DNA from: a virus
Taxonomy: Duplodnaviria; Heunggongvirae; Uroviricota; Caudoviricetes
DNA: 9,660 bases
Virus record (IMG/VR): IMGVR_UViG_2706794662_000014
Strand: one strand, 5' to 3'
The position numbers and the translations under genes are program-made. The notes beneath the pieces are model-generated. The model saw only the letters and a program-made list of their open reading frames with translations. It ran no database searches and was not told the DNA's origin. Positions 1 to 9,660 of this stretch are shown piece by piece (the stretch's first letter is position 1; every line of letters begins with the position of its first letter).

Positions 1-83
1 AGGGACAGCTGATAGAAACAGAAGCCACTGGAGCACCTCAAAAACACCATCATACACTAAATCAGTAAGTTGGCAGCATCACC
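1..83 (-). mobile_element. IS1 insertion sequence, partial (left inverted-repeat end; element continues left of the window)
   Basis: Positions 1-83 read as the reverse complement of the first ~83 nt of IS1 as I recall it; terminal repeat GGTGATGCTGCCAACTTACTGAT appears as ATCAGTAAGTTGGCAGCATCACC at 61-83. insA 5' end lies on the minus strand from ~28 leftward. From memory, not a search. Confidence 0.9.
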
Positions 84-235
84 CCGCCACAGAACAATTA
101 TTGCTTTTGCCGTTGATGACAATAAAGTTTTTATCGCAGGCGTATACCACGGTGGGCAAATCTATGAAACCGATTTTTTATCCAGTGCACCGTAAAACCC
201 CCATCCTTCAGGGCGTGGCGGATATCAAACTTTGG

Positions 236-1318
236 TCATTTTCTCTGGCTGATCTTTACCGGATAACCATCCCGAAGATCAATTAAGTGCTCCGGTTCAG
301 AAGCAAACCATGCATAAGATCCCCACGCCAATTCTGGTATTGCCTTTTTAAAAGGCAGAGCACTTCTGTCCATAAATGCCGTAAGGAATGCAAGATTTTT
401 CTCGCTGAACCCAGCGTCAATAGCCAAATGAGTGAGAGTAACTTTTCGTTCCCTGTTTATAGGCCCATCTGTCGCAACTACTTCAGTGAAAACTACAAGC
501 ATGTCCGAACCCGTTCGGTCCTCTCCCAAATCAATCAAAATAATATCTGGAAGTGCTTTTGAGGCATCAATATTCAGCCCCAATGCTTTTGCCAATACAT
601 CATCCTGAGCAACAACTTTATTCCCGGATTCAGACAACCAGAGCACAGTTGGATTCTTAAGAAAATTAGGAGCAAAAACTTCGATGACGGCCTTAGCTAT
701 TGTACTTGACGGGCCCGGAGCTAAAGTTCTCTTCTCTCCATTTGGGAAAGTGACGACTACGGCATCAGCAGCAATCACTGCCCCTGATTTCAATAAACGC
801 AACCTAGCAAGAGCGGCTTTGTTCAAATGATTTTCTTGCCAGGAACTTATTGCACTCAGCAGCGAATCTCCTTCAAGCCCGGCATCAAAGAGTGCTGCAA
901 AAGAGCGATTCAAACTGTAACGAGGACGAGAGGATGTGGTGGGTATACCTTTACGCTCAACAATTGCATTGCAAGGTATTAGGCCATTTTTTATAGTTTC
1001 ATCACGTATTGGCTCACGCGTATTTTCCGCATACCATGCATCAGCAGGCCTTATCTTTTGTTTAGAGAAAGTCATCTTTACCCAGCTTTCTCTGGACGCA
1101 TCATCAGTAAGAGCAGCCTGCGAATCTCCCATACTTACAACCTGGCTGGGCCTTATCCATCGCCCCAGCCCCTCAACCGCACCAGCATAAAACATGACAA
1201 AAATTGTTTTTGCAGCTATTTCCCGAATTAAATATCCACGATTCTCAGTCCCTTCAGGGAAAATTAATTGTAATCTTTCCCGGATAACATTCAATGGGGG
1301 AACAACAGGCAGATTCAT
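236..1318 (-). CDS. Putative type II restriction endonuclease, PstI/BsuBI-like
   Basis: 360-codon ORF. ATG (1318-1316) overlaps the methyltransferase TGA stop (ATGA at 1315-1318), GGAG ~9-12 nt upstream. C-terminal segments LPDIILIDL...LVVFTEVVATDGPINRERK and AWGSYAWFASEPEHLI resemble my recollection of PstI-family enzymes (LPDVVVYD...LFLIEAVTSHGPISPKR). Position directly downstream of a methyltransferase. Family assignment is unverified recall. Confidence 0.6.
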   Translation of the reverse strand: MNLPVVPPLNVIRERLQLIFPEGTENRGYLIREIAAKTIFVMFYAGAVEGLGRWIRPSQVVSMGDSQAALTDDASRESWVKMTFSKQKIRPADAWYAENTREPIRDETIKNGLIPCNAIVERKGIPTTSSRPRYSLNRSFAALFDAGLEGDSLLSAISSWQENHLNKAALARLRLLKSGAVIAADAVVVTFPNGEKRTLAPGPSSTIAKAVIEVFAPNFLKNPTVLWLSESGNKVVAQDDVLAKALGLNIDASKALPDIILIDLGEDRTGSDMLVVFTEVVATDGPINRERKVTLTHLAIDAGFSEKNLAFLTAFMDRSALPFKKAIPELAWGSYAWFASEPEHLIDLRDGYPVKISQRK

Positions 1319-3147
1319 GCAATCATCACTCCATAGAAACCAGCGATAGTTCTCTCAATAATCCGTCTGTGGACGCCAGCATCAATTAACGATTGAATCT
1401 CCATCACCTGCTCCAGAGAAGGCAACGGGATTGAATTCAATTCATAGGCCGAAACAGCAACACTTCCGCTTATACACCTGAACGCCCGATCGACAACATG
1501 CGAATTAAGTAGCATATCAATAACATCAGGGCGAACCGCAGAGAACAATCCGTTTGAATATACAATATTAATATGGTTTTCAACTACTACGCCACCAGTT
1601 TCATCTATAAATCCCTGAGGTAAAATTGCCGCTAAAATCCTTCTGTCCTGTTCCTTCGATGTTGTCCGCTGAACAAGCACACATTCAGATTTTGTCACAA
1701 GGAAACCCTGTTGTGGGGTTATATCGATATAGGGAACATGATTTTTTCTGTCTGCACTAAAACGAAAACCAGCTGAAGTTATTGATTCCGCCCAGACTAA
1801 TGGGTAGCTATTTTTTCCTTTCGTCGTACGCAACTGCGACTTAAATCGATTCCAGACTAACTGACCTGTAGAGACTGAGTATCCCAGATCAGCTAAACGC
1901 GTAGACATCTGTTTTAATACATTAAGAAAACAGGCATCATCTTTAACGCGTGGCAAAAGCCACGTTGCTCCACCTTTTTCTATATCAACATTACCTATTT
2001 TCTCAATTTTTGCTTTGTTCAACCCCTTAGGGACAAGTGAGGATACCTGGGCCCGAACTTTATGTTCTCCCGCCTTGAATGCTGTCAACATTGTTTCCTG
2101 GAGAACATCGTCAAAGACCCCATCCCTGTCAGTGACGAAATCAAGGGCATACGGAGTAGTTTTTTCGGTCAAAAGGGTTCGCAGCGCGGTGAAATACTGC
2201 CCACCAAGAAAAGAAGTTGGCGTAAGAAATGCAATAACTCCTGTTTTCTCTTTAACCATGCGAACAGCTAAGTCGGTGAACAATCCATATAGATTTGCAT
2301 GACCAAATAACGAACGAGAATATTTTTCTCTCGTTTTAATATCGAGAGTGACACGTCCGTAAGGCGGATTCCCTACCACAAGATCATAACCAGAAAATTT
2401 ATCTTGCTGAAGCGCATCAGCAACAATAATTGTATCTTCAGGCAATCTACGTTTTACCTTTACACATAGTGGCATTAGTACAGATTCGAGCAATACCAAA
2501 CTCATCCAAGCCGCAAATGGATCGATTTCTATCCCCTTTAAACGACGACTGATTCTCCTCAACATCCATTCAGGGGAAGACCCCTTGTCTTTTTTTAACA
2601 TTCGAATGGCTACTGGTGCCAAAAATGCACCGCCACCACACGCAGGATCAATAACCGATGCATGAGAAAAATCAACACCAGACTTTTCAGCCAGGTCCAA
2701 GAGACGCGCTACCAAAGGTGGGGGGGTATAGTAAGCCCCCAATTCCGAACGGTAAGCGGATGGCAGCATTACCGTATAAATTGACCCAATCAGATATCCA
2801 GCGTCCTCCGCCGGAAATTGAGCAATAAGCTCACCTGTTCGTTCAGCGAGCTCGCGTGCATCACATGGAATGTCTTCTATGTAAACAGTGTGCGGTACTG
2901 CCCTCATTTTAATGCTGCTTTTTTGCTTTTTTGCAAGGGTATCCCAATATGCAGCTACGATGCTGAAGCAGTATGAGCGGGCATGCATCAACCTTGACTG
3001 CCCGGTTTTGTAATTGCCCGCATAACCTTTGGCCATGGCTTTACAAGTTTGATATCTTTCCAGATTAGAAAACTCATTATCTGTAAAAAAATCAAAATGT
3101 TGCACATTCATAATGTAAAATCCTAATGTATCAAACATGCGGGCCAT
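1315..3147 (-). CDS. N6-adenine (amino) DNA methyltransferase, gamma class, with large C-terminal target-recognition region
   Basis: 610-codon ORF. Motif X GAYYTPPPLV, motif I (AdoMet) VIDPACGGGAFL, motif IV VGNPPYG, in gamma-class order. About 330 aa follow motif IV. Start uncertain (ATG at 3147, 3138 or 3111). Confidence 0.85.
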   Translation of the reverse strand: MARMFDTLGFYIMNVQHFDFFTDNEFSNLERYQTCKAMAKGYAGNYKTGQSRLMHARSYCFSIVAAYWDTLAKKQKSSIKMRAVPHTVYIEDIPCDARELAERTGELIAQFPAEDAGYLIGSIYTVMLPSAYRSELGAYYTPPPLVARLLDLAEKSGVDFSHASVIDPACGGGAFLAPVAIRMLKKDKGSSPEWMLRRISRRLKGIEIDPFAAWMSLVLLESVLMPLCVKVKRRLPEDTIIVADALQQDKFSGYDLVVGNPPYGRVTLDIKTREKYSRSLFGHANLYGLFTDLAVRMVKEKTGVIAFLTPTSFLGGQYFTALRTLLTEKTTPYALDFVTDRDGVFDDVLQETMLTAFKAGEHKVRAQVSSLVPKGLNKAKIEKIGNVDIEKGGATWLLPRVKDDACFLNVLKQMSTRLADLGYSVSTGQLVWNRFKSQLRTTKGKNSYPLVWAESITSAGFRFSADRKNHVPYIDITPQQGFLVTKSECVLVQRTTSKEQDRRILAAILPQGFIDETGGVVVENHINIVYSNGLFSAVRPDVIDMLLNSHVVDRAFRCISGSVAVSAYELNSIPLPSLEQVMEIQSLIDAGVHRRIIERTIAGFYGVMIA

Positions 3148-3361
3148 AACATCTCATGGTGGCGCATAGCAAACTGGCCCGAAGAATATCACGCACCAAG
3201 TCGATCTCATAACCCGTTATGACAATAAATCTTTGTAGCTGAACTCACTTGGTGATTTGTCAATCATTCCTGGCCTCCAGTTCGTCCTGAATCTCTTTAT
3301 CGAGTTCACCGTATTTGTTAGTCCTCATCACTCACGACTTGACTTCCAGAAATAACCTTGA

Positions 3362-3718
3362 TTATTCGGGGCTATATTTTGTCACCCTGCGTATCCGCGC
3401 TTTCGCATTACGCTCAATCTGGATTAGCTTTTCTATATTTTTTCGCCTTTCCCGCTCCTCCTGGCGCAAGAGCCTTACATCATCTGCCAGTCTGGTTTCT
3501 CTTTTCGCCACAGAGAGCATCCAGTCAAATGGCTCCACAACTGCACCGCAAATTTTACAGCGGACCTGACGCTCTTTTTCGTCAACCCGGACAGAAGCGT
3601 GATGGCAATATGGTCTTTCCGATGGCTCATAAAGAAAATTAACCTGATTACGAGGGTTATCCTCTTTTACCGGAAATAAAACAATATTGCTTAACTCATC
3701 TTCTGGTTTTATTTCCAT
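3362..3718 (-). CDS. Hypothetical prophage protein with Cys-rich zinc-ribbon-like motif and basic coiled-coil tail
   Basis: ORF track 3362..3775 starts at a non-ATG codon. Internal ATG at 3718 (MEIKPEDE...) has a strong RBS AGGAGAGGAG 5-8 nt upstream. Motif C-H-H x15 C-K-I-C; C-terminus rich in R/E/K. TAA stop at 3362-3364. Confidence 0.55.
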   Translation of the reverse strand: MEIKPEDELSNIVLFPVKEDNPRNQVNFLYEPSERPYCHHASVRVDEKERQVRCKICGAVVEPFDWMLSVAKRETRLADDVRLLRQEERERRKNIEKLIQIERNAKARIRRVTKYSPE

Positions 3719-3775
3719 GCTCCTCTCCTTTGATGCGAATGCCAGCGGTAATTGAAGCCTGATAGCTAATTTCAC

Positions 3776-4198
3776 TCACAGTACCGCCTCCTGAAAATCA
3801 CCCTGATAGAAAGCCGGTACACGCTGCATAACTTCACTCTTCCGGCACTCGCGACAGATTATGTTCTGATGTCTGTCGTAGCGGCGTATTTCTCCGTCTG
3901 GTAATGACCAGATAAGGTCCGGATCAACCACAGATGGTTTCTTCAGCTTTGCCCTCGAGAGTTTTTTGCGGGCGTTTTGCCAGTCCTTACGAGCCTGTTC
4001 AGACGGGAATAACCCGTAGCCAGAGTTGTATACATCCCCACTGGCAACCAGCTCTCTGGCGAGAACGCTTATTAAATATCTTGTCGCCCCGGTTTTAGCT
4101 TCCAGTTGTCGTAACGTCTCGCGCCCACTCTGGCGTACGAGTTCAACAACCTGCCCCTTAATTTTTTCCCGCTCTTCCTGTGTAAATACTTTTGCCAT
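3776..4198 (-). CDS. Hypothetical prophage protein, winged-helix-like N-terminus plus CxxC
   Basis: ORF track starts at TTG 4213; ATG at 4198 (MAKVFTQEE...) is the first ATG. HTH-like segment ETLRQLEAKTGATRYLISVLARELV; C-terminal ICRECRK. No family recognised. Confidence 0.5.
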   Translation of the reverse strand: MAKVFTQEEREKIKGQVVELVRQSGRETLRQLEAKTGATRYLISVLARELVASGDVYNSGYGLFPSEQARKDWQNARKKLSRAKLKKPSVVDPDLIWSLPDGEIRRYDRHQNIICRECRKSEVMQRVPAFYQGDFQEAVL

Positions 4199-4213
4199 AA
4201 GCGCCCCCGGCAA

Positions 4214-4939
4214 TCACTTTTCCGACACAATACGACCGGAGGAATCGACAATCTGTCGAACAATATCCCGGTGCTTGTTCAGCTCCCGCAACGCGGCGCA
4301 GACACGCTCCCACTTCTGGACATGACTTTTCGCCCGACGCAGTTCGCGGTTTGCCATATGCAGCGATGGTAAAACCAGGTCATCCGCTTGCGTTTCGGTG
4401 AACGATGGCAACGACTGCACAATGTCCGCCACAGTTTCTGTTTTAATTTCTTCCTGTGTTGCAGCTTCCTGTACCGGTAACGCAACACCTGCTGGCTGAG
4501 GAAAGACTTTACCATCCGTTTCCGCTATGGATGCGGCTTTCGGCTCTGCCGGTAAATCAGCGCCCGGTATGCAGTACCGAAATTTACCGCCCTGATTCAC
4601 GCGAATCAGACGCCCTTTGCTGATTGCCATGGCCAGCGATGAATTCGCCCGGCGGGAGGTAATCCCGAACATCAGTGCCAGCTCATCCGCCGTTTGTGGG
4701 CCATGTTGTTCAATCGCCTCAGTCAGCATTTGCGCTGTCACTTTCGGTACCGGTGACACTGGTTCACTTTCACCAGCCTGAATCAGCCACCACATCGAAC
4801 CCTTGTTATCCGCTTCACCACGGCGCTTCAGTTTCCACAGTTCGTTGACCGCATCTTCACGGCTGATTCCAAGGCGGGACGCCACCACATGTGAAGAGGC
4901 TCTTTTCAGTGCTTTCAGTGCGTCAAATACAGTTTCCAT
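4214..4939 (-). CDS. Hypothetical prophage protein with two winged-helix-like repeats
   Basis: ORF track starts at TTG 4957; ATG at 4939 (METVFDALK...) has GGAGG 8 nt upstream (plus 4948-4952). Two similar HTH-like segments ([25 protein letters not shown] and [28 protein letters not shown]). TGA stop at 4214-4216. Confidence 0.55.
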
Positions 4940-4960
4940 TAAAACATCCTCCAACAAAAA

Positions 4961-5472
4961 TTACTTCACAACTCCCGGAAAGCTGACATTTGAACGCCAG
5001 CTATCCCAGTTAAACGTCACCCACCGACAACCGTTCATGGTCATGCGGTCCATAATCCTCTCACCAAGAAGCGTGCTCATTGCGGCATGATTCAGGTTTG
5101 TTAACATCCCGACACTGCACAGTGATGCTGTCCGGCGATCAATTATCTGGTGCAATACCACCTGCTCGTTTTTCGTCTCCCGCTGAATGCCTATTTCATC
5201 CAGGACCAGCAAATCAACCCCGCAAAGCTCCTGTAAAAATTTTTCACCGGATTTGCCGTTGTCGTAGCTGTCATGCAACACGCTCATGACATCAGACTCG
5301 GTGACGATAATCACGCTGCGCCCCTTCGCCATCAGCCGGTTACCCATCGCCGCTGCAAGGTGATTTTTCCCGGTGCCGGTTTTACCGCTGAACACAAAAT
5401 TCGTGCACCCGGTCATCAGTTCGTCAGCTATGGATTTGGCCTGGCTCAGCGCGTATTTTTGCCCGTCGTTCT
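4961..5472 (-). CDS. DnaC/IstB-like AAA+ helicase loader (phage P-position replication protein), 5' end lost in N gap
   Basis: Walker A GKTGTGKNHLAAA, Walker B LLVLDEIG, sensor-like TNLN. Lies downstream of the O-like gene. ORF-track residues upstream of the N run are artefactual. Confidence 0.8.
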
Positions 5473-5745
5473 GCACCTGATAANNNNNNNNNNNNNNNNN
5501 NNNNNNNNNNNNNNNNNNNNNNNNNNNNNNNNNNNNNNNNNNNNNNNNNNNNNNNNNNNNNNNNNNNNNNNNNNNNNNNNNNNNNNNNNNNNNNNNNNNN
5601 NNNNNNNNNNNNNNNNNNNNNNNNNNNNNNNNNNNNNNNNNNNNNNNNNNNNNNNNNNNNNNNNNNNNNNNNNNNNNNNNNNNNNNNNNNNNNNNNNNNN
5701 NNNNNNNNNNNNNNNNNNNNNNNNNNNNNNNNNNNNNNNNNNNNN
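5473..5745. other. Run of 273 N (assembly gap or masked sequence)
   Basis: Literal n characters in the sequence. It removes the 3' end of the O-like gene and the 5' end of the DnaC-like gene. Confidence 0.99.
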
Positions 5746-6722
5746 AACCAGGGGTTTTCAAAATTCCGGTCCGGCCCAAAAAACGTCGTCGCTCGCTGAA
5801 CAAATTCCGTTCCCGCTTTCCCGGTCGCCGCCAGGTATCTCGCGTAACGCCTCACACCATCCAGCATGGTCTCTGGTGGCACCCCCTCGCGCAATCTGGC
5901 CTTCCAGGCACTGAATGCGGATTTCTTCGGGTTTGCCCCGGCACGCAACGGGTATTCCCGCCAGACCTGTTCGAACACATCCGGATAATCCACTCGTCCC
6001 ACAGGCTGCCCGGTGTTTTCCGGGGCTACCCGATCGGCTTCCCGCTGAATGGCGGAATCGGCTTCAGGCTGCTGCAGTTGGAGTGATTGCTCCGGCCTTG
6101 CGGTCATCACCTGCTGCACAGCGCCCGAATCGGCTTTCAGCGCATACGCTGAATCGGCTTCCGGTGTCGAGCCTGCTGGCTGACCAGGATTGACGGTCTG
6201 AACATCCCCTGCCTGGTTCGTGGCGTTTTTTACGCCATGGACCATAGTGTTTTGATCTTCTTTATCTGTATCTTTATCTGTATCTGTCGTGACTCGTCGT
6301 GACATGTGCGTGACATTTCGTGACGCGCCGTGACAATCGCCATTTTGTTCCCGCTTTCTTTCCCTCTCTCGCTGCGCCCTCTTGCGCTCTGCAGGAGATT
6401 TTGCGGTTTGCGAAATATTGCCGTTGTCCTCTTTAAGCACCTGGCGTTTTTCCCATCCAGTGATTAAATCACCATCAAGTACCCGCCCCTGCATCGTCTG
6501 CAAAATTGAATCAATTACCTCTTCTGTCACGTCGAGCGCACTTGCCAAATCTTCTGTCGTGACATCAATGTGACCTCGCGTGACATTTCGTGACGCGCTC
6601 ACCAGGAGGTGGATATACACTGCCATCACTGTTGCAATTGGCTGCCCTGACACCCTGGCAATTGTTCGCCACTTAGGGTCATTTGGCATGTCATGCCATA
6701 ATCTGAGCCAGGCGTTAGCCAT
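5746..6722 (-). CDS. Phage replication initiation protein, O-like (YdaU-like), 3' end lost in N gap
   Basis: ATG 6722 (MANAWLRLW...) with RBS AGAGGTGA preferred over ORF-track GTG 6728. N-terminal HTH-like region, low-complexity acidic/Q-rich linker, C-terminal FEQVWREYP...KKSAFSAWKARL. Position between cII-position gene and DnaC-like loader; contains iteron arrays. Confidence 0.65.
6259..6334. repeat. Iteron array plus AT-rich 12-bp tandem repeat: candidate replication origin inside the O-like gene
   Basis: CGTGAC cores at 6288, 6298, 6309, 6319, 6329 (spacing 10-11 bp), preceded by TCTTTATCTGTA x2 (6259-6282). Confidence 0.6.
6523..6598. repeat. Second iteron-like cluster, in the N-terminal coding region of the O-like gene
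   Basis: CGTGAC at 6558, 6579, 6589; TGTGAC at 6569; inverted GTCACG at 6526-6531. The 21-mer GCGTGACATTTCGTGACGCGC at 6578-6598 is identical to 6308-6328. Confidence 0.55.
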
Positions 6723-6793
6723 ACTCACCTCTTCTGATACCGAATCTTTTTACTCACGAGTTGCCGGGAGCGATTCGATATGGCTATTGTCAG

Positions 6794-7219
6794 TCAATGT
6801 ACTGCCACAGCATTTCCTGCCGGGCCACCACGGTTCATCTGATTGAAACCGGCGATTGCCACTGCGACAAAATCATCAGCGTCTCTCACCAGTCGTTCAT
6901 GCGTCTCCACCAGTTCCCGAAAATAAGCTGAACTGTGGCTGCGCATTCGAGCCACCAGCGGAGGTGGCATTGCCCTTTCGATCGCAGGTAACAACGCCTG
7001 AATTTTTTCAACAGCGTCAGGGGTGTCTTTATCCAGCCAACGGAAAATCTTTTGGGTGTTGAGATAAAGCGTGTTGTGCTTGCTGTCGTTATGCAGAACC
7101 GGAAACGTCATTCCCAGTTCGAAATAAACCCTGGTTATTTCAGCTGCCGGAACTTTTTCACCGTCCGGATGCGCCCAGGCTTTCATCGCCATGCGGATGT
7201 GTTCATGCTTGATTTTCAT
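6794..7219 (-). CDS. cII-position protein, possibly YdaT-like
   Basis: 141-codon ORF, ATG 7219-7217 overlapping the Cro-like stop (ATGA). Sits between cro-like and O-like genes. YdaT assignment is from synteny and vague recall only. Confidence 0.6.
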   Translation of the reverse strand: MKIKHEHIRMAMKAWAHPDGEKVPAAEITRVYFELGMTFPVLHNDSKHNTLYLNTQKIFRWLDKDTPDAVEKIQALLPAIERAMPPPLVARMRSHSSAYFRELVETHERLVRDADDFVAVAIAGFNQMNRGGPAGNAVAVH

Positions 7220-7479
7220 GAATCAACCCCCGCCGATGGTTGTGTGTTAGCCTGAAACTCAGCAGGCAAGCCGTCAGTTGGGTTGGGGTAGGTTTTACTG
7301 TCAATCTCATGTGGGGTCACCACCCATCCCGTTGCTTCACACCAACGTAATATTTTTTCTCCTGTAAGTTTTGCACGCCCCGTTATAACGTGGCTGACCA
7401 TCCCTTGGGATGCGCCAACAATCTCAGCAAATGAACTCTGGGTTATATGAAAATGATGCAAATATTCTCCAAGATTCAT
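7216..7479 (-). CDS. Cro-like HTH transcriptional regulator
   Basis: ORF track starts at TTG 7506; first ATG at 7479 (MNLGEYLHH...). HTH segment SSFAEIVGASQGMVSHVITGRAKL. Divergent from the repressor gene, downstream of the PR-like promoter. Confidence 0.7.
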   Translation of the reverse strand: MNLGEYLHHFHITQSSFAEIVGASQGMVSHVITGRAKLTGEKILRWCEATGWVVTPHEIDSKTYPNPTDGLPAEFQANTQPSAGVDS

Positions 7480-7513
7480 AATCCGCCCTATGTGATGTGT
7501 TACCAATGCATAA

Positions 7514-7542
7514 TTAATAGCACTGTTATTTTTAAAAGTAAA
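7514..7542 (-). promoter_or_regulatory. PR-like promoter for the cro-like operon
   Basis: On minus strand: -35 TTTACT (plus 7537-7542), 17-nt spacer, -10 TATTAA (plus 7514-7519); ~27-nt leader to ATG 7479. Confidence 0.45.
7516..7530. promoter_or_regulatory. Operator-like 15-bp palindromic site OR-a (AATAGCACTGTTATT)
   Basis: Half-sites AATAGC / AATAAC around a 3-bp centre; overlaps the PR-like -10. Member of a four-copy motif family. Confidence 0.6.
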
Positions 7543-7555
7543 TAGTGATGCTATT
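7541..7555. promoter_or_regulatory. Operator-like 15-bp palindromic site OR-b (AATAGTGATGCTATT)
   Basis: Centre 25 bp from OR-a; overlaps the PR-like -35 and abuts the PRM-like -35. Confidence 0.6.
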
Positions 7556-7583
7556 TCAAAGTGATTAGCAATCTTATTAGAAT
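7555..7583 (+). promoter_or_regulatory. PRM-like promoter for the repressor gene, possibly giving a leaderless transcript
   Basis: -35 TTCAAA (7555-7560), 17-nt spacer, -10 TAGAAT (7578-7583); predicted start ~7590, at the ATG (7591). No clear Shine-Dalgarno before ATG 7591. Confidence 0.4.
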
Positions 7584-7590
7584 TGGATGT

Positions 7591-8091
7591 ATGAAAAGAA
7601 AATCATTGTCAGACACCGACCTCAACGCCGCCAGAAGACTGAAAGAAATCTGGATGGCAAAGAAATCTCAGTTGGGATTGACTCAGGAACGTGCGGCGGA
7701 AATTATGGGGTTTTCAACACAAGGGGCGGTAAGTCACTACCTAAATGGTCAAACCCCACTAAACCTTGAGGCTGTTCTAAAGTTTGCTGGCTTACTGAAA
7801 GTTCCCCCTGAGTCAATCAGGCCAGACATGGTAGATTTGCTGCAAATTGCAAGGATGTATTGTCGAGAACCACAGCAAGATAACATAGTCGCATTACCAG
7901 CAGACACAGAACAAACAGAGGATGAACTACCGTTTGCCGTAGAGCCGATGGAACGAGATTTAATCCATACGTTCAGAGCTTTTCCGAAAGAAGATCAAGA
8001 ACACATGCTTCAGGAGATGAAAGATAAAAAAGAATCAATGGATCGTACGGTTGCGCGGTGGTTAGCTGCACAAAAAGGCCGTCGCGCCTAA
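7591..8091 (+). CDS. Prophage repressor, lambda cI N-terminal-domain-like HTH, no S24/LexA-type cleavage domain; possibly PaaR2-like regulator of the downstream toxin-antitoxin pair
   Basis: ATG 7591 (MKRKSLSDTDLNAARRLKEIW...) preferred over ORF-track GTG 7561. First ~80 aa parallel lambda cI as I recall it ([35 protein letters not shown] vs LSDTDLNAARRLKEIWMAKKSQLGLTQERAAEIMG). Total 166 aa; C-terminal half acidic with no Ser/Lys peptidase motifs. Confidence 0.75.
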   Translation: MKRKSLSDTDLNAARRLKEIWMAKKSQLGLTQERAAEIMGFSTQGAVSHYLNGQTPLNLEAVLKFAGLLKVPPESIRPDMVDLLQIARMYCREPQQDNIVALPADTEQTEDELPFAVEPMERDLIHTFRAFPKEDQEHMLQEMKDKKESMDRTVARWLAAQKGRRA

Positions 8092-8110
8092 ATCAGAGGA
8101 GATATGTAAA

Positions 8111-8305
8111 ATGAGTACAGTCCTTTCCCCAATGGTTTCAGAATTTGAGACAGTTGAGCAAGAAAATAGTTACAACGAATGGCTGCGGGCCAAAGTAGCA
8201 GCAAGCCTCGCGGATCCCCGCCCGGCGATTCCGCATGATGAGGTAATGGCGGAAATGGAACAAATTATTGCCCAAATTGCTGCTGCAACTCACAGAGGTG
8301 AATAA
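8111..8305 (+). CDS. paaA2: Type II antitoxin, PaaA2-like, partner of ParE-family toxin
   Basis: 64-codon ORF, RBS AGAGGAG (8095-8101) 9 nt before ATG, TAA stop overlapping the toxin ATG (TAATG at 8302-8307). Sequence LSPMVSEFETVEQENSYNEWLRAKVAASLADPRPAIPHDEV matches my recollection of PaaA2 from E. coli O157:H7; symbol is from memory. Confidence 0.7.
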   Translation: MSTVLSPMVSEFETVEQENSYNEWLRAKVAASLADPRPAIPHDEVMAEMEQIIAQIAAATHRGE

Positions 8306-8595
8306 TGTTACCCGTTTTATGGCTACCATCTGCTCGTGATGATTTGCGCCAGATCGTAGCCTACATAGCTAAAGAAAATCCCGCGGCAGCACGCAGAATG
8401 AAAATTCGAATTGAAACATCCGTTTTGCCGCTCACAGAGCATCCTTACCTGTATCCTCCAAGCGAGCGAGTTCTTGGTCTTCGTGAAATTGTAACTCATC
8501 CTAACTACATCATCCTTTACCGAGTAACAGCATCAAGCATAGAAGTAGTAAATATTGTGCATTCTCGAAGACAGTATCCAGGCAAAAACAGTTAA
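8305..8595 (+). CDS. parE: ParE/RelE-superfamily toxin (ParE2-like)
   Basis: 96 codons. Typical ParE pattern: MLPVLWLPSARDDLRQIVAYIA...PYLYPPSERVLGLREIVTHPNYIILYRV...IEVVNIVHSRR. Translationally coupled to the upstream antitoxin. Confidence 0.85.
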   Translation: MLPVLWLPSARDDLRQIVAYIAKENPAAARRMKIRIETSVLPLTEHPYLYPPSERVLGLREIVTHPNYIILYRVTASSIEVVNIVHSRRQYPGKNS

Positions 8596-8611
8596 TTATT
8601 CCCGCCGACAG

Positions 8612-8636
8612 AACCACCTTAGGGTGGTTTTTTCTT
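8612..8636 (+). terminator. Rho-independent terminator ending the repressor/toxin-antitoxin transcript
   Basis: Stem AACCACC (8612-8618), loop TTAG, stem GGTGGTT (8623-8629), then T-tract TTTTTCTT to 8636; 17 nt after the parE stop. Confidence 0.75.
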
Positions 8637-8651
8637 GCCCCAACAAAAAAC

Positions 8652-8666
8652 AATAGCGATGCTATT
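8652..8666. promoter_or_regulatory. Operator-like 15-bp palindromic site OL-a (AATAGCGATGCTATT)
   Basis: Perfect palindrome around a GAT centre; overlaps the -35 of the PL-like promoter. Confidence 0.6.
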
Positions 8667-8694
8667 TACATCAAAAAAATAATGATGCTATTGT
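8665..8694 (+). promoter_or_regulatory. PL-like early promoter
   Basis: -35 TTTACA (8665-8670), 18-nt spacer, -10 TATTGT (8689-8694); both hexamers overlapped by operator sites; sits just downstream of the terminator. Confidence 0.45.
8678..8692. promoter_or_regulatory. Operator-like 15-bp palindromic site OL-b (AATAATGATGCTATT)
   Basis: Centre 26 bp from OL-a; overlaps the -10 of the PL-like promoter. Confidence 0.6.
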
Positions 8695-8873
8695 TTCAGG
8701 CGTCAACCCTCCCCGCCCCACAGAATGCAGGGCAATACTTCGAGTTACCAGACAGTGGTCAGGGGTTAAGTAGCCAGCCCGAGGCGTAAGAACATGACGG
8801 CAGGGTTCAATCTTTAACTATGCAGCAGGTTTTTTGTTCCGCCACCCCGGCGTTAAGGGGAAATGAGGTCAGC

Positions 8874-9026
8874 ATGGATACTATCGATCTTGGCAACAAC
8901 GAATCTCTGGTGTGCGGCGTGTTCCCTAACCAGGATGGAACGTTTACCGCCATGACGTATACCAAAAGCAAAACGTTTAAAACCGAATCTGGCGCGCGTT
9001 GCTGGTTAGCCAGAAACACTGACTGA
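8874..9026 (+). CDS. Small hypothetical protein (50 aa), first gene after the PL-like promoter
   Basis: ATG 8874 with GAGG (8865-8868) 5 nt upstream is preferred over the ORF-track ATG 8820, which has no RBS. TGA stop overlaps the next start (TGATG). One Cys pair, no recognisable motif. Confidence 0.45.
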   Translation: MDTIDLGNNESLVCGVFPNQDGTFTAMTYTKSKTFKTESGARCWLARNTD

Positions 9027-9403
9027 TGAGGCTGACGATGGAATTTAAAGATTTACCGTCTGATGTACAGAAAACAGCAGCTCATACATTGCATTCTGTG
9101 CTGCGAGAAATCGGGAAAGATATTGCAAGCGAGCCAGCAAAAGATCTGGCCCGGAAAATCAAGACCGCTTTCGTTGAGCTTTATAATGTTGGCACTGACT
9201 CTGAAACTGTCGAGACCAAGACCGTAAGTTCACCAATATTCTCACTTGAGCCAAGCGTATTATCAGGTGAAATATGCACCGAGATTTCCAGCGAACTGCT
9301 TCCGGTAATACGAGAAGCAATTCGCCGTCGCGGTTTGGATGGAAGTTATGATCATGACGTTCTGCAAGTTCTCAGGACAATGGTGACTTCACTGGGGATT
9401 TGA
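9026..9403 (+). CDS. Hypothetical protein (125 aa; or 121 aa from ATG 9038)
   Basis: ATG 9026 overlaps the upstream stop; alternative ATG 9038 has GAGG (9028-9031) 6 nt upstream. Acidic, helical-looking; not arginine-rich as lambda N would be. Confidence 0.5.
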   Translation: MRLTMEFKDLPSDVQKTAAHTLHSVLREIGKDIASEPAKDLARKIKTAFVELYNVGTDSETVETKTVSSPIFSLEPSVLSGEICTEISSELLPVIREAIRRRGLDGSYDHDVLQVLRTMVTSLGI

Positions 9404-9535
9404 TCCCTGCGTCCTCTAAGCTTTTGATATAGCGGTCCTCCAAGAAGCGGTAAATTTTGTCGAAATCATCTTTTCCCTCTGGTTTATTCAGAGGATTACA
9501 GGACCCGTAAGTAGCGGCATACATTTCAACCGTTT

Positions 9536-9660
9536 GGTAATGACTCCAACTTATTGATAGTGTTTTATGTTCAGATAATGCCCGATGACTTTGTCATGCA
9601 GCTCCACCGATTTTGAGAACGACAGCGACTTCCGTCCCAGCCGTGCCAGGTGCTGCCTCA
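9536..9660 (-). mobile_element. IS1 insertion sequence, partial (right inverted-repeat end; element continues right of the window)
   Basis: 9536-9660 reads as the reverse complement of the last ~125 nt of IS1 as I recall it (GGTAATGACTCCAACTTATTGATAGTGTTTTATGTTCAGATAATG...). insB 3' end on the minus strand, TAA at 9551-9553. Same orientation as the copy at 1-83. Confidence 0.9.

Follow-up and report, generated by a model that had tools for sequence, protein, structure and literature searches.

The window analyzed here, the whole 9,660-nucleotide stretch of DNA, very probably holds (we put this at about 92%) what is left, in situ, of the middle of a lambdoid prophage (Qin/Rac/CP-933P type) that insertion sequences have trimmed on both sides in a chromosome of Shigella sonnei type. 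Its 9.5-kb segment was produced by IS1 eroding the prophage step by step, and is neither a composite transposon nor a cointegrate. The original prediction had offered an IS1-eroded cryptic prophage in a Shigella-type genome as one of two alternatives, and it is this one that collinearity with intact prophages, location at the Qin site and the pattern of target-site duplications uphold. Such an IS-trimmed remnant is an ordinary, already known and well-understood sort of genome decay.

The IS1 copies and the segment they enclose

As reference we used the two complete 768-bp IS1 copies of S. sonnei FORC_011 (locus L017; 234-1001 and 10511-11278), which are identical to each other and code for InsA (PF03811 and PF12759) and an IS1 DDE transposase (PF03400, E = 6e-78). 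The reverse complement of window positions 1-83 is identical at 83/83 bases to IS1 positions 1-83 (IRL and the start of insA), and that of 9536-9660 corresponds to IS1 positions 644-768 (the end of insB and IRR), with 9537-9660 identical at 124/124 to the 3' end of the complete copies and base 9536, the terminal G of GGTAATGAC, taken straight from the sequence. Matches of such length and exactness are not a chance event. Both copies lie on the minus strand and are thus direct repeats, enclosing exactly the interior (84-9535) that had been predicted, which measures 9,509 bp in L017 versus 9,452 bp in the window with its 262 masked N. The boundary features and the masked run are:

1-83, minus: left IS1, IRL end and first insA bases, the remainder lying outside the window start
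85-195, plus: parE' stump, the final 36 codons plus stop of a ParE of 103 aa from a ParD/ParE pair
5484-5745: masked run of 262 N, whose L017 counterpart (6402-6719) has 318 nt
9527-9535: inner copy of the 9-bp target-site duplication of the right IS1, CAACCGTTT, found on both sides of this IS1 in sister loci
9536-9660, minus: right IS1, termed IS1(a), IRR end and insB 3' end, the remainder lying past the window end

IS1 is highly repeated in such genomes and short-read contigs break there, so a repeat-induced misjoin might place IS1 ends beside an unrelated contig. This is barely credible here: the right inner junction recurs as a 161-nt exact match in 12 S. sonnei-type loci, and all 12, which are chromosome-scale sequences (4.8-5.0 Mb) from different assemblies, carry the two inner junctions exactly. 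Because the window ends inside both IS1 copies, its outer flanks were inferred from these 12 sister chromosomes.

Its gene content marks the interior as a lambdoid prophage's block of early, immunity and replication genes. The restriction-modification (R-M) pair, iteron replication module and ParE toxin-antitoxin that had been read from the letters were all recovered (236-3147; CGTGACA repeats within 6298-6585; 8111-8595):

236-1318, minus: type II restriction endonuclease, BsuBI/PstI family, 360 aa (PF06616 E = 9e-45; PF17728 E = 1e-30)
1315-3147, minus: N6-adenine DNA methyltransferase, 610 aa, with 598 aa if a later start is used (PF07669, PF02384; PADLOC MTase_II E = 2e-300)
3362-3775, minus: small phage protein, 118-137 aa (phrog_1621 E = 2e-54; weak zinc-ribbon signal, weak PF08271)
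3776-4213, minus: DUF977 protein, "Ren-like exclusion protein" in PHROGs (PF06163 E = 3e-30; phrog_142)
4214-4957, minus: DUF1627 (YdaW-like) protein (PF07789 E = 4e-93; phrog_630)
4961-5483, minus: DnaC-like helicase loader, its C-terminal part visible and its N-terminus beneath the N mask
5746-6722, minus: O-like replication initiator, visible part (phrog_3729, replication initiation protein, E = 3e-250)
6259-6594: putative origin within the O-like gene, with iteron-like (G)TCGTGACA repeats grouped in two clusters (6286-6335 and 6525-6594)
6794-7219, minus: YdaT, CII-like regulator (PF06254; phrog_163; structures 3C4R E = 4e-79, 8BT1 E = 3e-70)
7209-7226: predicted YdaT operator TTGATTTTCATGAATCAA, perfect motif match, across the ydaS/ydaT junction
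7216-7479, minus: YdaS, Cro-like HTH regulator, 87 aa (weak HTH_3; phrog_35; the 87-aa call comes from sister loci)
7591-8091, plus: PaaR-like repressor in the cI/dicA position, 166 aa (PF01381; lambda CI N-domain structures E = 2.5e-9)
8111-8305, plus: PaaA2-type antitoxin, 64 aa (PF21217 E = 3e-23; PaaA2 structures 3ZBE and 5CW7 E = 1e-23)
8305-8595, plus: ParE2-type toxin, 96 aa (PF05016 E = 2e-17; ParE2 structure 5CW7_B E = 7e-37, about 70% identical)
8874-9026, plus: YdfA-like DUF1391 protein, 50 aa (PF07151 E = 1e-28)
9026-9403, plus: 125-aa phage protein (phrog_33007 E = 5e-80)

This block is collinear with intact lambdoid prophages that run beyond both IS1 positions (L001, L006, L014 and L018), leftward through ParE, ParD, DUF968, RusA, Q, lysis and head genes (L001, L006) and rightward through rha, dicB, exo, xis and int (L014, L018). 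In the 12 S. sonnei-type chromosomes it sits between ydfI and ynfF, which are the outer flanks in about 5,300 Escherichia coli genomes, at the site and in the orientation of Qin in E. coli K-12, where late genes point toward ydfI and dicA-ydfA-dicB toward the ynf genes. In a prophage-free E. coli (L022) the breakpoints fall at 20233/20234 and 30704, 10,470 bp apart, with ydfJ, rspBA, ynfA-D, speG and ynfE between them. The integrase and att sites have been lost and the nearest intact relatives (L001, L013, L014) are integrated beside potC, not ydfJ, so the in situ origin rests on collinearity with Qin and on flanking synteny.

A replication initiator, iteron-like repeats and two plasmid-style stability modules would also suit a plasmid or phage-plasmid with one IS1, fused to the chromosome by replicative transposition, since such cointegrate events do leave direct IS copies at the flanks. 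We regard this origin as highly improbable, given a lambdoid early-region gene order that continues unbroken past both IS1 positions in relatives, outer ends without a duplication, and IS1 copies apparently acquired separately. A search of 72,556 plasmids and 5,426 E. coli genomes returned no record covering at least 80% of the window; plasmid records cover at most 29%, through prophage-like regions, and a circular replicon with such a gene set and a single IS1 was not found among them.

Formation of the two junctions

On the right, ordinary transposition brought IS1(a) into a small ORF lying downstream of the 125-aa gene, with a 9-bp duplication as the result. Five loci (L005, L008, L009, L012, L016) keep CAACCGTTT intact on both sides, and the site stands empty in E. 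coli; in L014 and L018 it is empty with a single copy of the motif. A second copy, IS1(b), has the same orientation and sits within the 3' end of rha, where in L016 it is flanked by a separate 9-bp duplication, TTTCCGGTT. Strains fall into three groups by what lies just outside the right IS1, which is either the duplication in its intact state, the rha/dicB side of IS1(b), or the interior of ynfF. L003 and L015 carry the IS1(a) x IS1(b) recombinant junction, in L012 IS1(b) adjoins ynfF, and in L002, L004, L007, L010 and L017 the inner flank of IS1(a) is joined to the ynfF outer flank. That direct IS1 pairs favor deletion by homologous recombination had been proposed beforehand, and the junctions expected from it are present at this locus in sister strains. 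We propose that both the rha/dicB-side and ynfF-inside forms arose by recombination between direct IS1 copies, and that in addition ynfF was reached by one IS1-anchored deletion or through a third IS1; for this step, recombination of IS1 copies cannot be distinguished from an adjacent deletion promoted by IS1.

Through the left IS1, the middle of parE runs straight into the ydfI-ydfJ spacer at a point 48 bp upstream of ydfI. Translated, the parE' stump reproduces without change the C-terminal end of L001's intact ParE (11801-12112); in L001 the ParD and ParE have Pfam matches (both genes are also called in L006), and parD and the first 67 parE codons are missing through IS1. Also absent are ydfJ and the antiterminator, lysis and structural genes found past parDE in intact relatives. 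This junction probably formed likewise, by IS1-adjacent deletion or by IS1 x IS1 recombination; a left-junction intermediate, namely an IS1 with its duplication in parE or in the ydfI-ydfJ spacer, was not found. Contig L018 begins 5 nt inside the left junction and is without IS1(a), so that this type appears to have the left junction though the right IS1 is missing, and the two IS1 copies appear to have come at different times.

Identical direct IS1 copies around a passenger segment are the architecture of Tn9, and the second alternative of the original prediction had been a translocatable unit stabilized by its addiction modules. As a composite transposon, the two IS1 and 9.5 kb between them would have moved as a unit into the ydfI-ynfF region. 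The junctions make this very unlikely. The left IS1 of L017 has TGTTATATG outside and CCGCCACAG inside, and its right IS1 has CAACCGTTT inside and CGACCCGTG outside; the outer 9-mers, TGTTATATG and CGACCCGTG, are unequal, and the ends of the unit carry no target-site duplication. Moreover, the outer flanks lie 10.47 kb apart where the prophage is missing, whereas transposition spares target DNA from deletion; sister strains show a 9-bp duplication belonging to the right IS1 alone, beyond which the same prophage continues; and the L018 type apparently carries the left junction without the right IS1. The segment was found at a single location, with no second one in the same plasmids and genomes, and comparison of flanks, duplications and sister loci gave no evidence of movement. 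Unlike Tn9, the passenger is resident prophage DNA. The suggested checks of target-site duplications and of genomes lacking the IS1 copies accordingly return independent insertion followed by deletion.

Retained functions and persistence of the remnant

The remnant is transcriptionally self-contained, with a divergent PaaR versus YdaS/YdaT switch accompanied by PaaA2-ParE, an O-like/DnaC-like module and a type II R-M system. In L017 the DnaC-like gene is complete (5879-6625; 248 aa; PF01695, PF00308, phrog_50) and the O-like initiator reaches its full size of 354 aa; its L001 homologue bears the RefSeq name "phage replisome organizer". Beside the iteron-like clusters lies an A+T-rich TCTTTATCTGTA tandem repeat (6259-6285), and CGTGACA occurs 6 times in the window versus 0.96 expected, always inside 6298-6585, a count that 0/200 shuffles reached. 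The PaaR-like repressor combines a lambda-CI-type N-terminal HTH with a weak DicA C-terminal match, and comparison of domains and structures found no S24 peptidase domain in it.

The R-M pair forms the left limit of the remnant. Its genes overlap by 4 nt, and their GC content is 41-46% versus 50-54% in the replication genes. The endonuclease matches PADLOC REase_II (E = 3e-128) and the SdaI structure 2IXS (E = 2e-16). As in PstI/BsuBI/SdaI-type systems, including the prophage-borne EcoGIII type of Stx2 phages, a two-domain BsuBI/PstI endonuclease adjoins an N6-adenine methyltransferase, and like the EcoGIII type the pair is a moron in a lambdoid prophage. Its identity to the BsuBI-like endonucleases that Stx2 phages carry is, however, no more than 27-28%, and CTGCAG recognition therefore cannot be assumed.

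With two identical direct IS1 left, the whole 9.5 kb could be deleted in one more recombination event. A refinement of the erosion reading, which we hold as possible though doubtful, is that erosion came to a halt at these limits and such loss is counter-selected, because cells losing R-M or PaaA2-ParE would be killed. The IS1 lies only 152 bp past the endonuclease stop codon, the PaaR-PaaA2-ParE module is intact in every locus examined, IS1 x IS1 deletions fall just outside the segment at rha, and the segment occurs in very many assemblies (4,192 index blocks). On an unstable plasmid the homologous module of CP-933P behaves as an addiction system, and a role in restraining rearrangement of the prophage immunity region has been put forward for it (PMC8630535). 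Against this, the authors of that study did not detect ParE2 activity in single cells (PMC8630535), and clonal descent alone could explain persistence. In L016, moreover, the methyltransferase gene has lost its first ~144 codons and promoter while the endonuclease ORF is full-length with one substitution (S62G), so the R-M pair is either not an absolute barrier or already inactive.

Relation to known prophages and to genome reduction in Shigella

With the cryptic prophage CP-933P/Sp12 of E. coli O157:H7 the remnant shares the paaR2-paaA2-parE2 and ydaS-ydaT architecture beside an O homologue, in which the position and role of YdaS have their parallel (PMC8630535). Its PaaA2 and YdaT match solved structures, and it too has a perfect YdaT operator motif, TTGATTN6AATCAA (PMC9986795), at the ydaS/ydaT junction. 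The proteins are nonetheless diverged alleles, and the regulation and toxicity demonstrated for CP-933P might hold here as well.

Qin (Kim) of E. coli K-12 shares the site (beside ydfI, in ydfJ), the orientation, ydfA (DUF1391), the dicB-side gene order and a toxin-antitoxin pair between Q and the immunity genes, and is likewise IS-truncated at its int end, by IS2 in K-12 and by IS600 in S. sonnei strains. In contrast to Qin, which has DicA and DicC immunity, the remnant has PaaR, YdaS and YdaT, is IS1-bounded, and holds a replication module and an R-M pair, and it has lost every late gene, int and 10.5 kb of neighboring chromosome.

IS-driven reductive evolution in Shigella proceeds through IS1 expansion as well as deletions between IS copies that are homologous, with speG as a known convergent loss (Hawkey et al. 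2020, PMC7373316). The loss of speG falls at the remnant's own locus, which does not differ in kind and provides one worked example of this decay with its intermediates kept in sister strains.

IS1 ends and gene content of the segment

Both ends of the window are bona fide IS1. This element is ~768 bp long, has imperfect inverted repeats of ~23 bp at its two ends, starting GGTGATG and GGTAATG, and codes for InsA and an InsAB' DDE transposase, with frameshifting at an A6C motif. Junctions were read straight from the sequence and by pairwise DNA alignment, using as reference the two complete, mutually identical 768-bp IS1 copies of the Shigella sonnei FORC_011 locus (L017 234-1001 and 10511-11278). 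The left end of the window matched these copies at 83/83 bases and window 9537-9660 at 124/124, with base 9536, the terminal G, read off the sequence, and both end types (IRL and IRR) are present. The ends of the reference copies agree at 18 of 23 positions as read from the sequence, and full copies encode InsA (PF03811, PF12759) and a DDE transposase (PF03400, E = 6e-78), with the frameshift site TTAAAAAAC found in the IS1 consensus and full copies. Both copies lie on the minus strand and are thus direct repeats. The original prediction of a direct-orientation pair bracketing the window therefore stands: we examined whether the ends might not be IS1, or might be in opposite orientation, and found IS1 in the same orientation, with interior bounds of 84-9535 that are exact from the alignment.

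Features of the window
1-83, minus: left IS1 end, IS1 positions 1-83, IRL, starting GGTGATGCTGCC...
85-195, plus: ParE toxin stump of 36 codons, with the same amino acid sequence as the C-terminal end of full-length ParE from E. coli prophage L001
236-1318, minus: type II endonuclease, BsuBI/PstI family
1315-3147, minus: N6-adenine methyltransferase
3362-4957, minus: three small phage proteins (phrog_1621, DUF977/Ren-like, DUF1627)
4961-5483, minus: DnaC-like helicase loader, visible part
5746-6722, minus: O-like replication initiator, visible part
6794-7219, minus: YdaT (CII-like)
7216-7479, minus: YdaS (Cro-like)
7591-8091, plus: lambda-CI-like HTH repressor without peptidase domain, in the cI/dicA position
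8111-8305, plus: PaaA2-type antitoxin
8305-8595, plus: ParE2-type toxin, ~70% identity to PDB 5CW7_B
8874-9026, plus: YdfA-like DUF1391 protein
9026-9403, plus: 125-aa phage protein
9536-9660, minus: right IS1 end, IS1 positions 644-768, ending ...GGAGTCATTACC (IRR)

The interior is a defective lambdoid prophage of the Qin/Rac/CP-933P type; its immunity and toxin-antitoxin region resembles that of CP-933P, and it carries a restriction-modification moron. A repressor gene diverges from cro-cII genes; O-like and DnaC/P-like replication genes come next, then nin-region morons, all collinear with intact phages. At the DNA level, window ~3,300-9,000 is 84-95% identical to Rac-like and other lambdoid phages of E. 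coli. No integrase, lysis or virion genes lie between the IS1 copies; the related E. coli prophages L001 and L006 have them. No RNA families were found in the window (Rfam). A mask of 262 N (window 5484-5745) hides the stretch where the O-like gene ends and the DnaC-like gene begins; its counterpart in FORC_011 measures 318 nt (L017 6402-6719), giving a real interior of 9,509 bp, and the 56-nt discrepancy reflects either a mask shorter than the true sequence or a 56-nt deletion in the source.

Within the O-like gene, all six CGTGACA sites of the window cluster at 6298-6585 beside an A+T-rich tandem repeat, against a chance expectation of 0.96 and with none of 200 shuffles reaching six. As this clustering goes beyond chance, the iterons that had been ascribed to a replication module are real as a sequence feature, and clustered short direct repeats in an O-like gene next to an A+T-rich stretch are the arrangement of a lambda-type origin, making this a putative origin.

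As a separate observation, intact ParE in L001 is preceded by ParD, and window 85-195 is the leftover of a second toxin-antitoxin system (parDE) whose antitoxin and toxin N-terminus were lost together via an IS1-associated deletion.

Chromosomal site and history of the junctions

Exact-protein look-ups led to 12 chromosome-scale sequences that carry both exact inner junctions, one of them S. sonnei FORC_011 (CP010829.1), and since these come from different assemblies, the chance that the arrangement is an assembly artefact is negligible. In 12/12, the genes beyond the left IS1 are ydfI, ydfZ, rspR, ydfG and dcp, and the right side leads to ynfF, ynfG, ynfH, dmsD and clcB. In the prophage-free E. 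coli chromosome L022, the corresponding breakpoints fall in the ydfI-ydfJ spacer (20233/20234) and in ynfF (30704), 10,470 bp apart, with ydfJ, rspBA, ynfA, ynfB, speG, ynfC, ynfD and ynfE between them. All of these genes are lost around the remnant (L022 20234-30703 compared with L017), and some strains have also lost the first 448 codons of ynfF; the truncated YnfF' has 311 aa. In Shigella, speG loss is a recognized case of convergent pathoadaptation. The cryptic prophage Qin of E. coli K-12 occupies the same site in the same orientation, with its late genes toward ydfI and dicA-ydfA-dicB toward the ynf genes. We infer that the prophage already occupied the Qin site and was not imported, with the caveat that the remnant has neither int nor att sites and that the closest intact relatives are integrated beside potC. 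It may correspond to the PHAST region 75/02pp8 reported for S. sonnei 75/02 (PMC5447701).

Insertion of IS1 produces a target-site duplication of ~9 bp, and these duplications record how the right boundary came about. In L017 the 9-mers flanking the left IS1 are TGTTATATG (outer) and CCGCCACAG (inner), and those flanking the right IS1 are CGACCCGTG (outer) and CAACCGTTT (inner), so there is no duplication around either copy, nor around the pair as a unit. In the S. sonnei-type sister loci L008, L005, L009, L012 and L016, the right IS1 of the remnant, IS1(a), has CAACCGTTT on both sides, followed by more prophage (rha, dicB and beyond), and the empty site with a single CAACCGTTT is preserved in the E. 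coli prophage L014 and in contig L018. A second direct copy, IS1(b), lies in the 3' end of rha in L016 with its own duplication, TTTCCGGTT. The check for duplications thus returned a private 9-bp repeat for each of IS1(a) and IS1(b) in sister strains and none at the outer ends of the unit, and the comparison with relatives lacking IS1 found the IS1(a) site empty in L014 and L018 and L022 prophage-free at the locus. These repeats show that the two insertions were independent simple transpositions.

Subsequent exchange between the copies is recorded in the remaining loci. L003 and L015 carry one IS1 whose inner flank is that of IS1(a) and whose outer flank is that of IS1(b), the product expected from homologous recombination between the two. 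L012 already has ynfF sequence on the outer side of IS1(b). In L017, L002, L004, L007 and L010, one IS1 has this L012-type ynfF flank on its outer side and the IS1(a) flank on its inner side, as expected from the same recombination in an L012-like ancestor; the recombinant junctions are those that IS1 x IS1 exchange should give. In strains that keep the rha-dicB arm, the prophage stops at an exonuclease fragment that adjoins IS600, upstream of ynfF. On the other side, the left IS1 links the ydfI-ydfJ spacer to the middle of parE; Q and the lysis and virion genes, found past parDE in L001 and L006, are missing. The left junction, like the extension into ynfF, would be the result of adjacent deletion promoted by IS1 or of recombination with one more IS1 copy; no intermediate for either was found. 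Contig L018 (DAKIQP010000124.1; 1-180, 9361-9600) begins 5 nt inside the left junction and runs through rha, dicB and exo, yet its right IS1 site is empty, which suggests that the left truncation is older than the right IS1 insertion. The window ends inside both IS1 copies, an exact scan of a genome-contig collection for the left inner junction gave no match, and from the three right-flank forms of the sister strains we predict that the outer flanks of its source are ydfI on the left and one of CAACCGTTTTATC..., TTTCCGGTTTTATC... or CGACCCGTGATGG... on the right.

Two readings had been offered for the segment, an IS1-eroded cryptic prophage in a Shigella-type genome or a translocatable composite transposon, and the evidence favors the former: the insertions were independent, the junctions are of IS1 x IS1 type, and the prophage continues past the IS1 positions in relatives. 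Though two direct, identical IS1 copies bracketing a passenger are what Tn9-type composite transposition would leave, and the remnant resembles the Tn9 arrangement, it is not a member of that class. The outer 9-mers differ in L017, none match among the outer flanks of other strains, the two outer flanks of L017 are 10.47 kb apart in the prophage-free chromosome, and the IS1 copies apparently arrived separately. No second location was found either: all 12 chromosomes carry the unit beside ydfI, and a search of 72,556 plasmids and 5,426 E. coli genomes gave no record covering at least 80% of the window; we consider such transposition very improbable. An IS1 cointegrate of a plasmid is equally improbable, as gene order runs on past both IS1 positions in relatives.

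The observation of a bracketed segment is thus correct, well explained and ordinary. IS1 expansion, inter-IS deletion and speG loss are established in Shigella evolution (PMC7373316), and apart from bookkeeping the locus has little import. It cleanly illustrates how a prophage and its chromosomal neighbors are trimmed in Shigella by IS1 insertion, IS1 x IS1 recombination and IS-anchored deletion, with intermediates of this erosion surviving in sister strains. In most assemblies that have the endonuclease, it sits on contigs of 5-10 kb (2,158/4,192 index blocks). This is the pattern that breaks of short-read S. sonnei assemblies at the two IS1 copies should produce, leaving an orphan contig of ~9.5 kb that can be mistaken for a plasmid or transposon.

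Restriction-modification and toxin-antitoxin modules

The two addiction-type modules originally proposed are both present. The first, at 236-3147, is a predicted restriction-modification pair in which a BsuBI/PstI-family endonuclease with N-terminal and catalytic domains adjoins an N6-adenine methyltransferase. Its GC content is 41-46%, against 50-54% in the neighboring replication genes, and it is missing in most related prophages (e.g., L014); both features are consistent with a horizontally acquired moron, and megablast gave no match among phages for block 84-3290. PstI and BsuBI recognize CTGCAG. A reading of the pair as an EcoGIII/PstI isoschizomer was dropped, because the endonuclease shares only 27-28% identity with its Stx2-phage homologues (tblastn), from which specificity cannot be inferred.

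The second module spans 8111-8595 and follows the PaaR-PaaA-ParE order, with an HTH regulator (7591-8091; PF01381), an antitoxin (8111-8305; PF21217) and a toxin (8305-8595; PF05016); the module has PDB matches to 5CW7 and 3ZBE. PaaA2-type antitoxins have no DNA-binding domain. The architecture is that of the CP-933P immunity region of E. coli O157:H7, where PaaR2, YdaS and YdaT play the CI, Cro and CII roles and paaA2-parE2 is an embedded addiction module; ParE toxicity, PaaA neutralization, PaaR repression and addiction are established for the O157:H7 homologue only (PMC8630535). A putative YdaT operator, TTGATTTTCATGAATCAA, perfectly matches the motif TTGATTN6AATCAA at 7209-7226 across the ydaS stop and ydaT start, and a YdaT-activated internal promoter has been reported at the ydaS/ydaT junction in CP-933P.

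Whether these modules stabilize the remnant by limiting its loss is a tentative proposal that we regard as possible but doubtful. All loci keep an intact PaaR-PaaA2-ParE module, whose O157 homologue is addictive, but in L016 (CP060117; 5380-5600) a clean 1.85-kb internal deletion, equivalent to window ~2716-4562, has removed the first ~144 codons of the methyltransferase and its promoter, fusing the remainder to the 3' half of the DUF1627 gene, while the endonuclease open reading frame is full length with one substitution, S62G. Judged from sequence, this suggests that the restriction-modification pair is not strictly addictive, or that the endonuclease is inactivated. We also propose, as a much less likely variant, a selfish 'addiction island' in which IS1 x IS1 recombination would loop out a circle of ~10.3 kb with one IS1, a phage-type origin, the O-like and DnaC-like genes and the restriction-modification and toxin-antitoxin modules; the circle could replicate or re-enter via IS1 homology, and cells losing it would be killed. 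If this were true, these modules would set the limits of prophage erosion in S. sonnei. As a natural test bed, the locus lends itself to asking whether cryptic prophage DNA is lost more slowly where restriction-modification and toxin-antitoxin modules are present.

Two minor observations concern the immunity region. Between ydaS and paaR, window 7516-7555 holds an imperfect inverted repeat, AATAGCACTGTTATTT / AAATAGTGATGCTATT, which is a candidate PaaR/YdaS operator. In one assembly (L020 6333-7730; AAVEHV010000132.1), an IS91-family insertion with a Y2 transposase splits ydaT; the remnant is still eroding internally.
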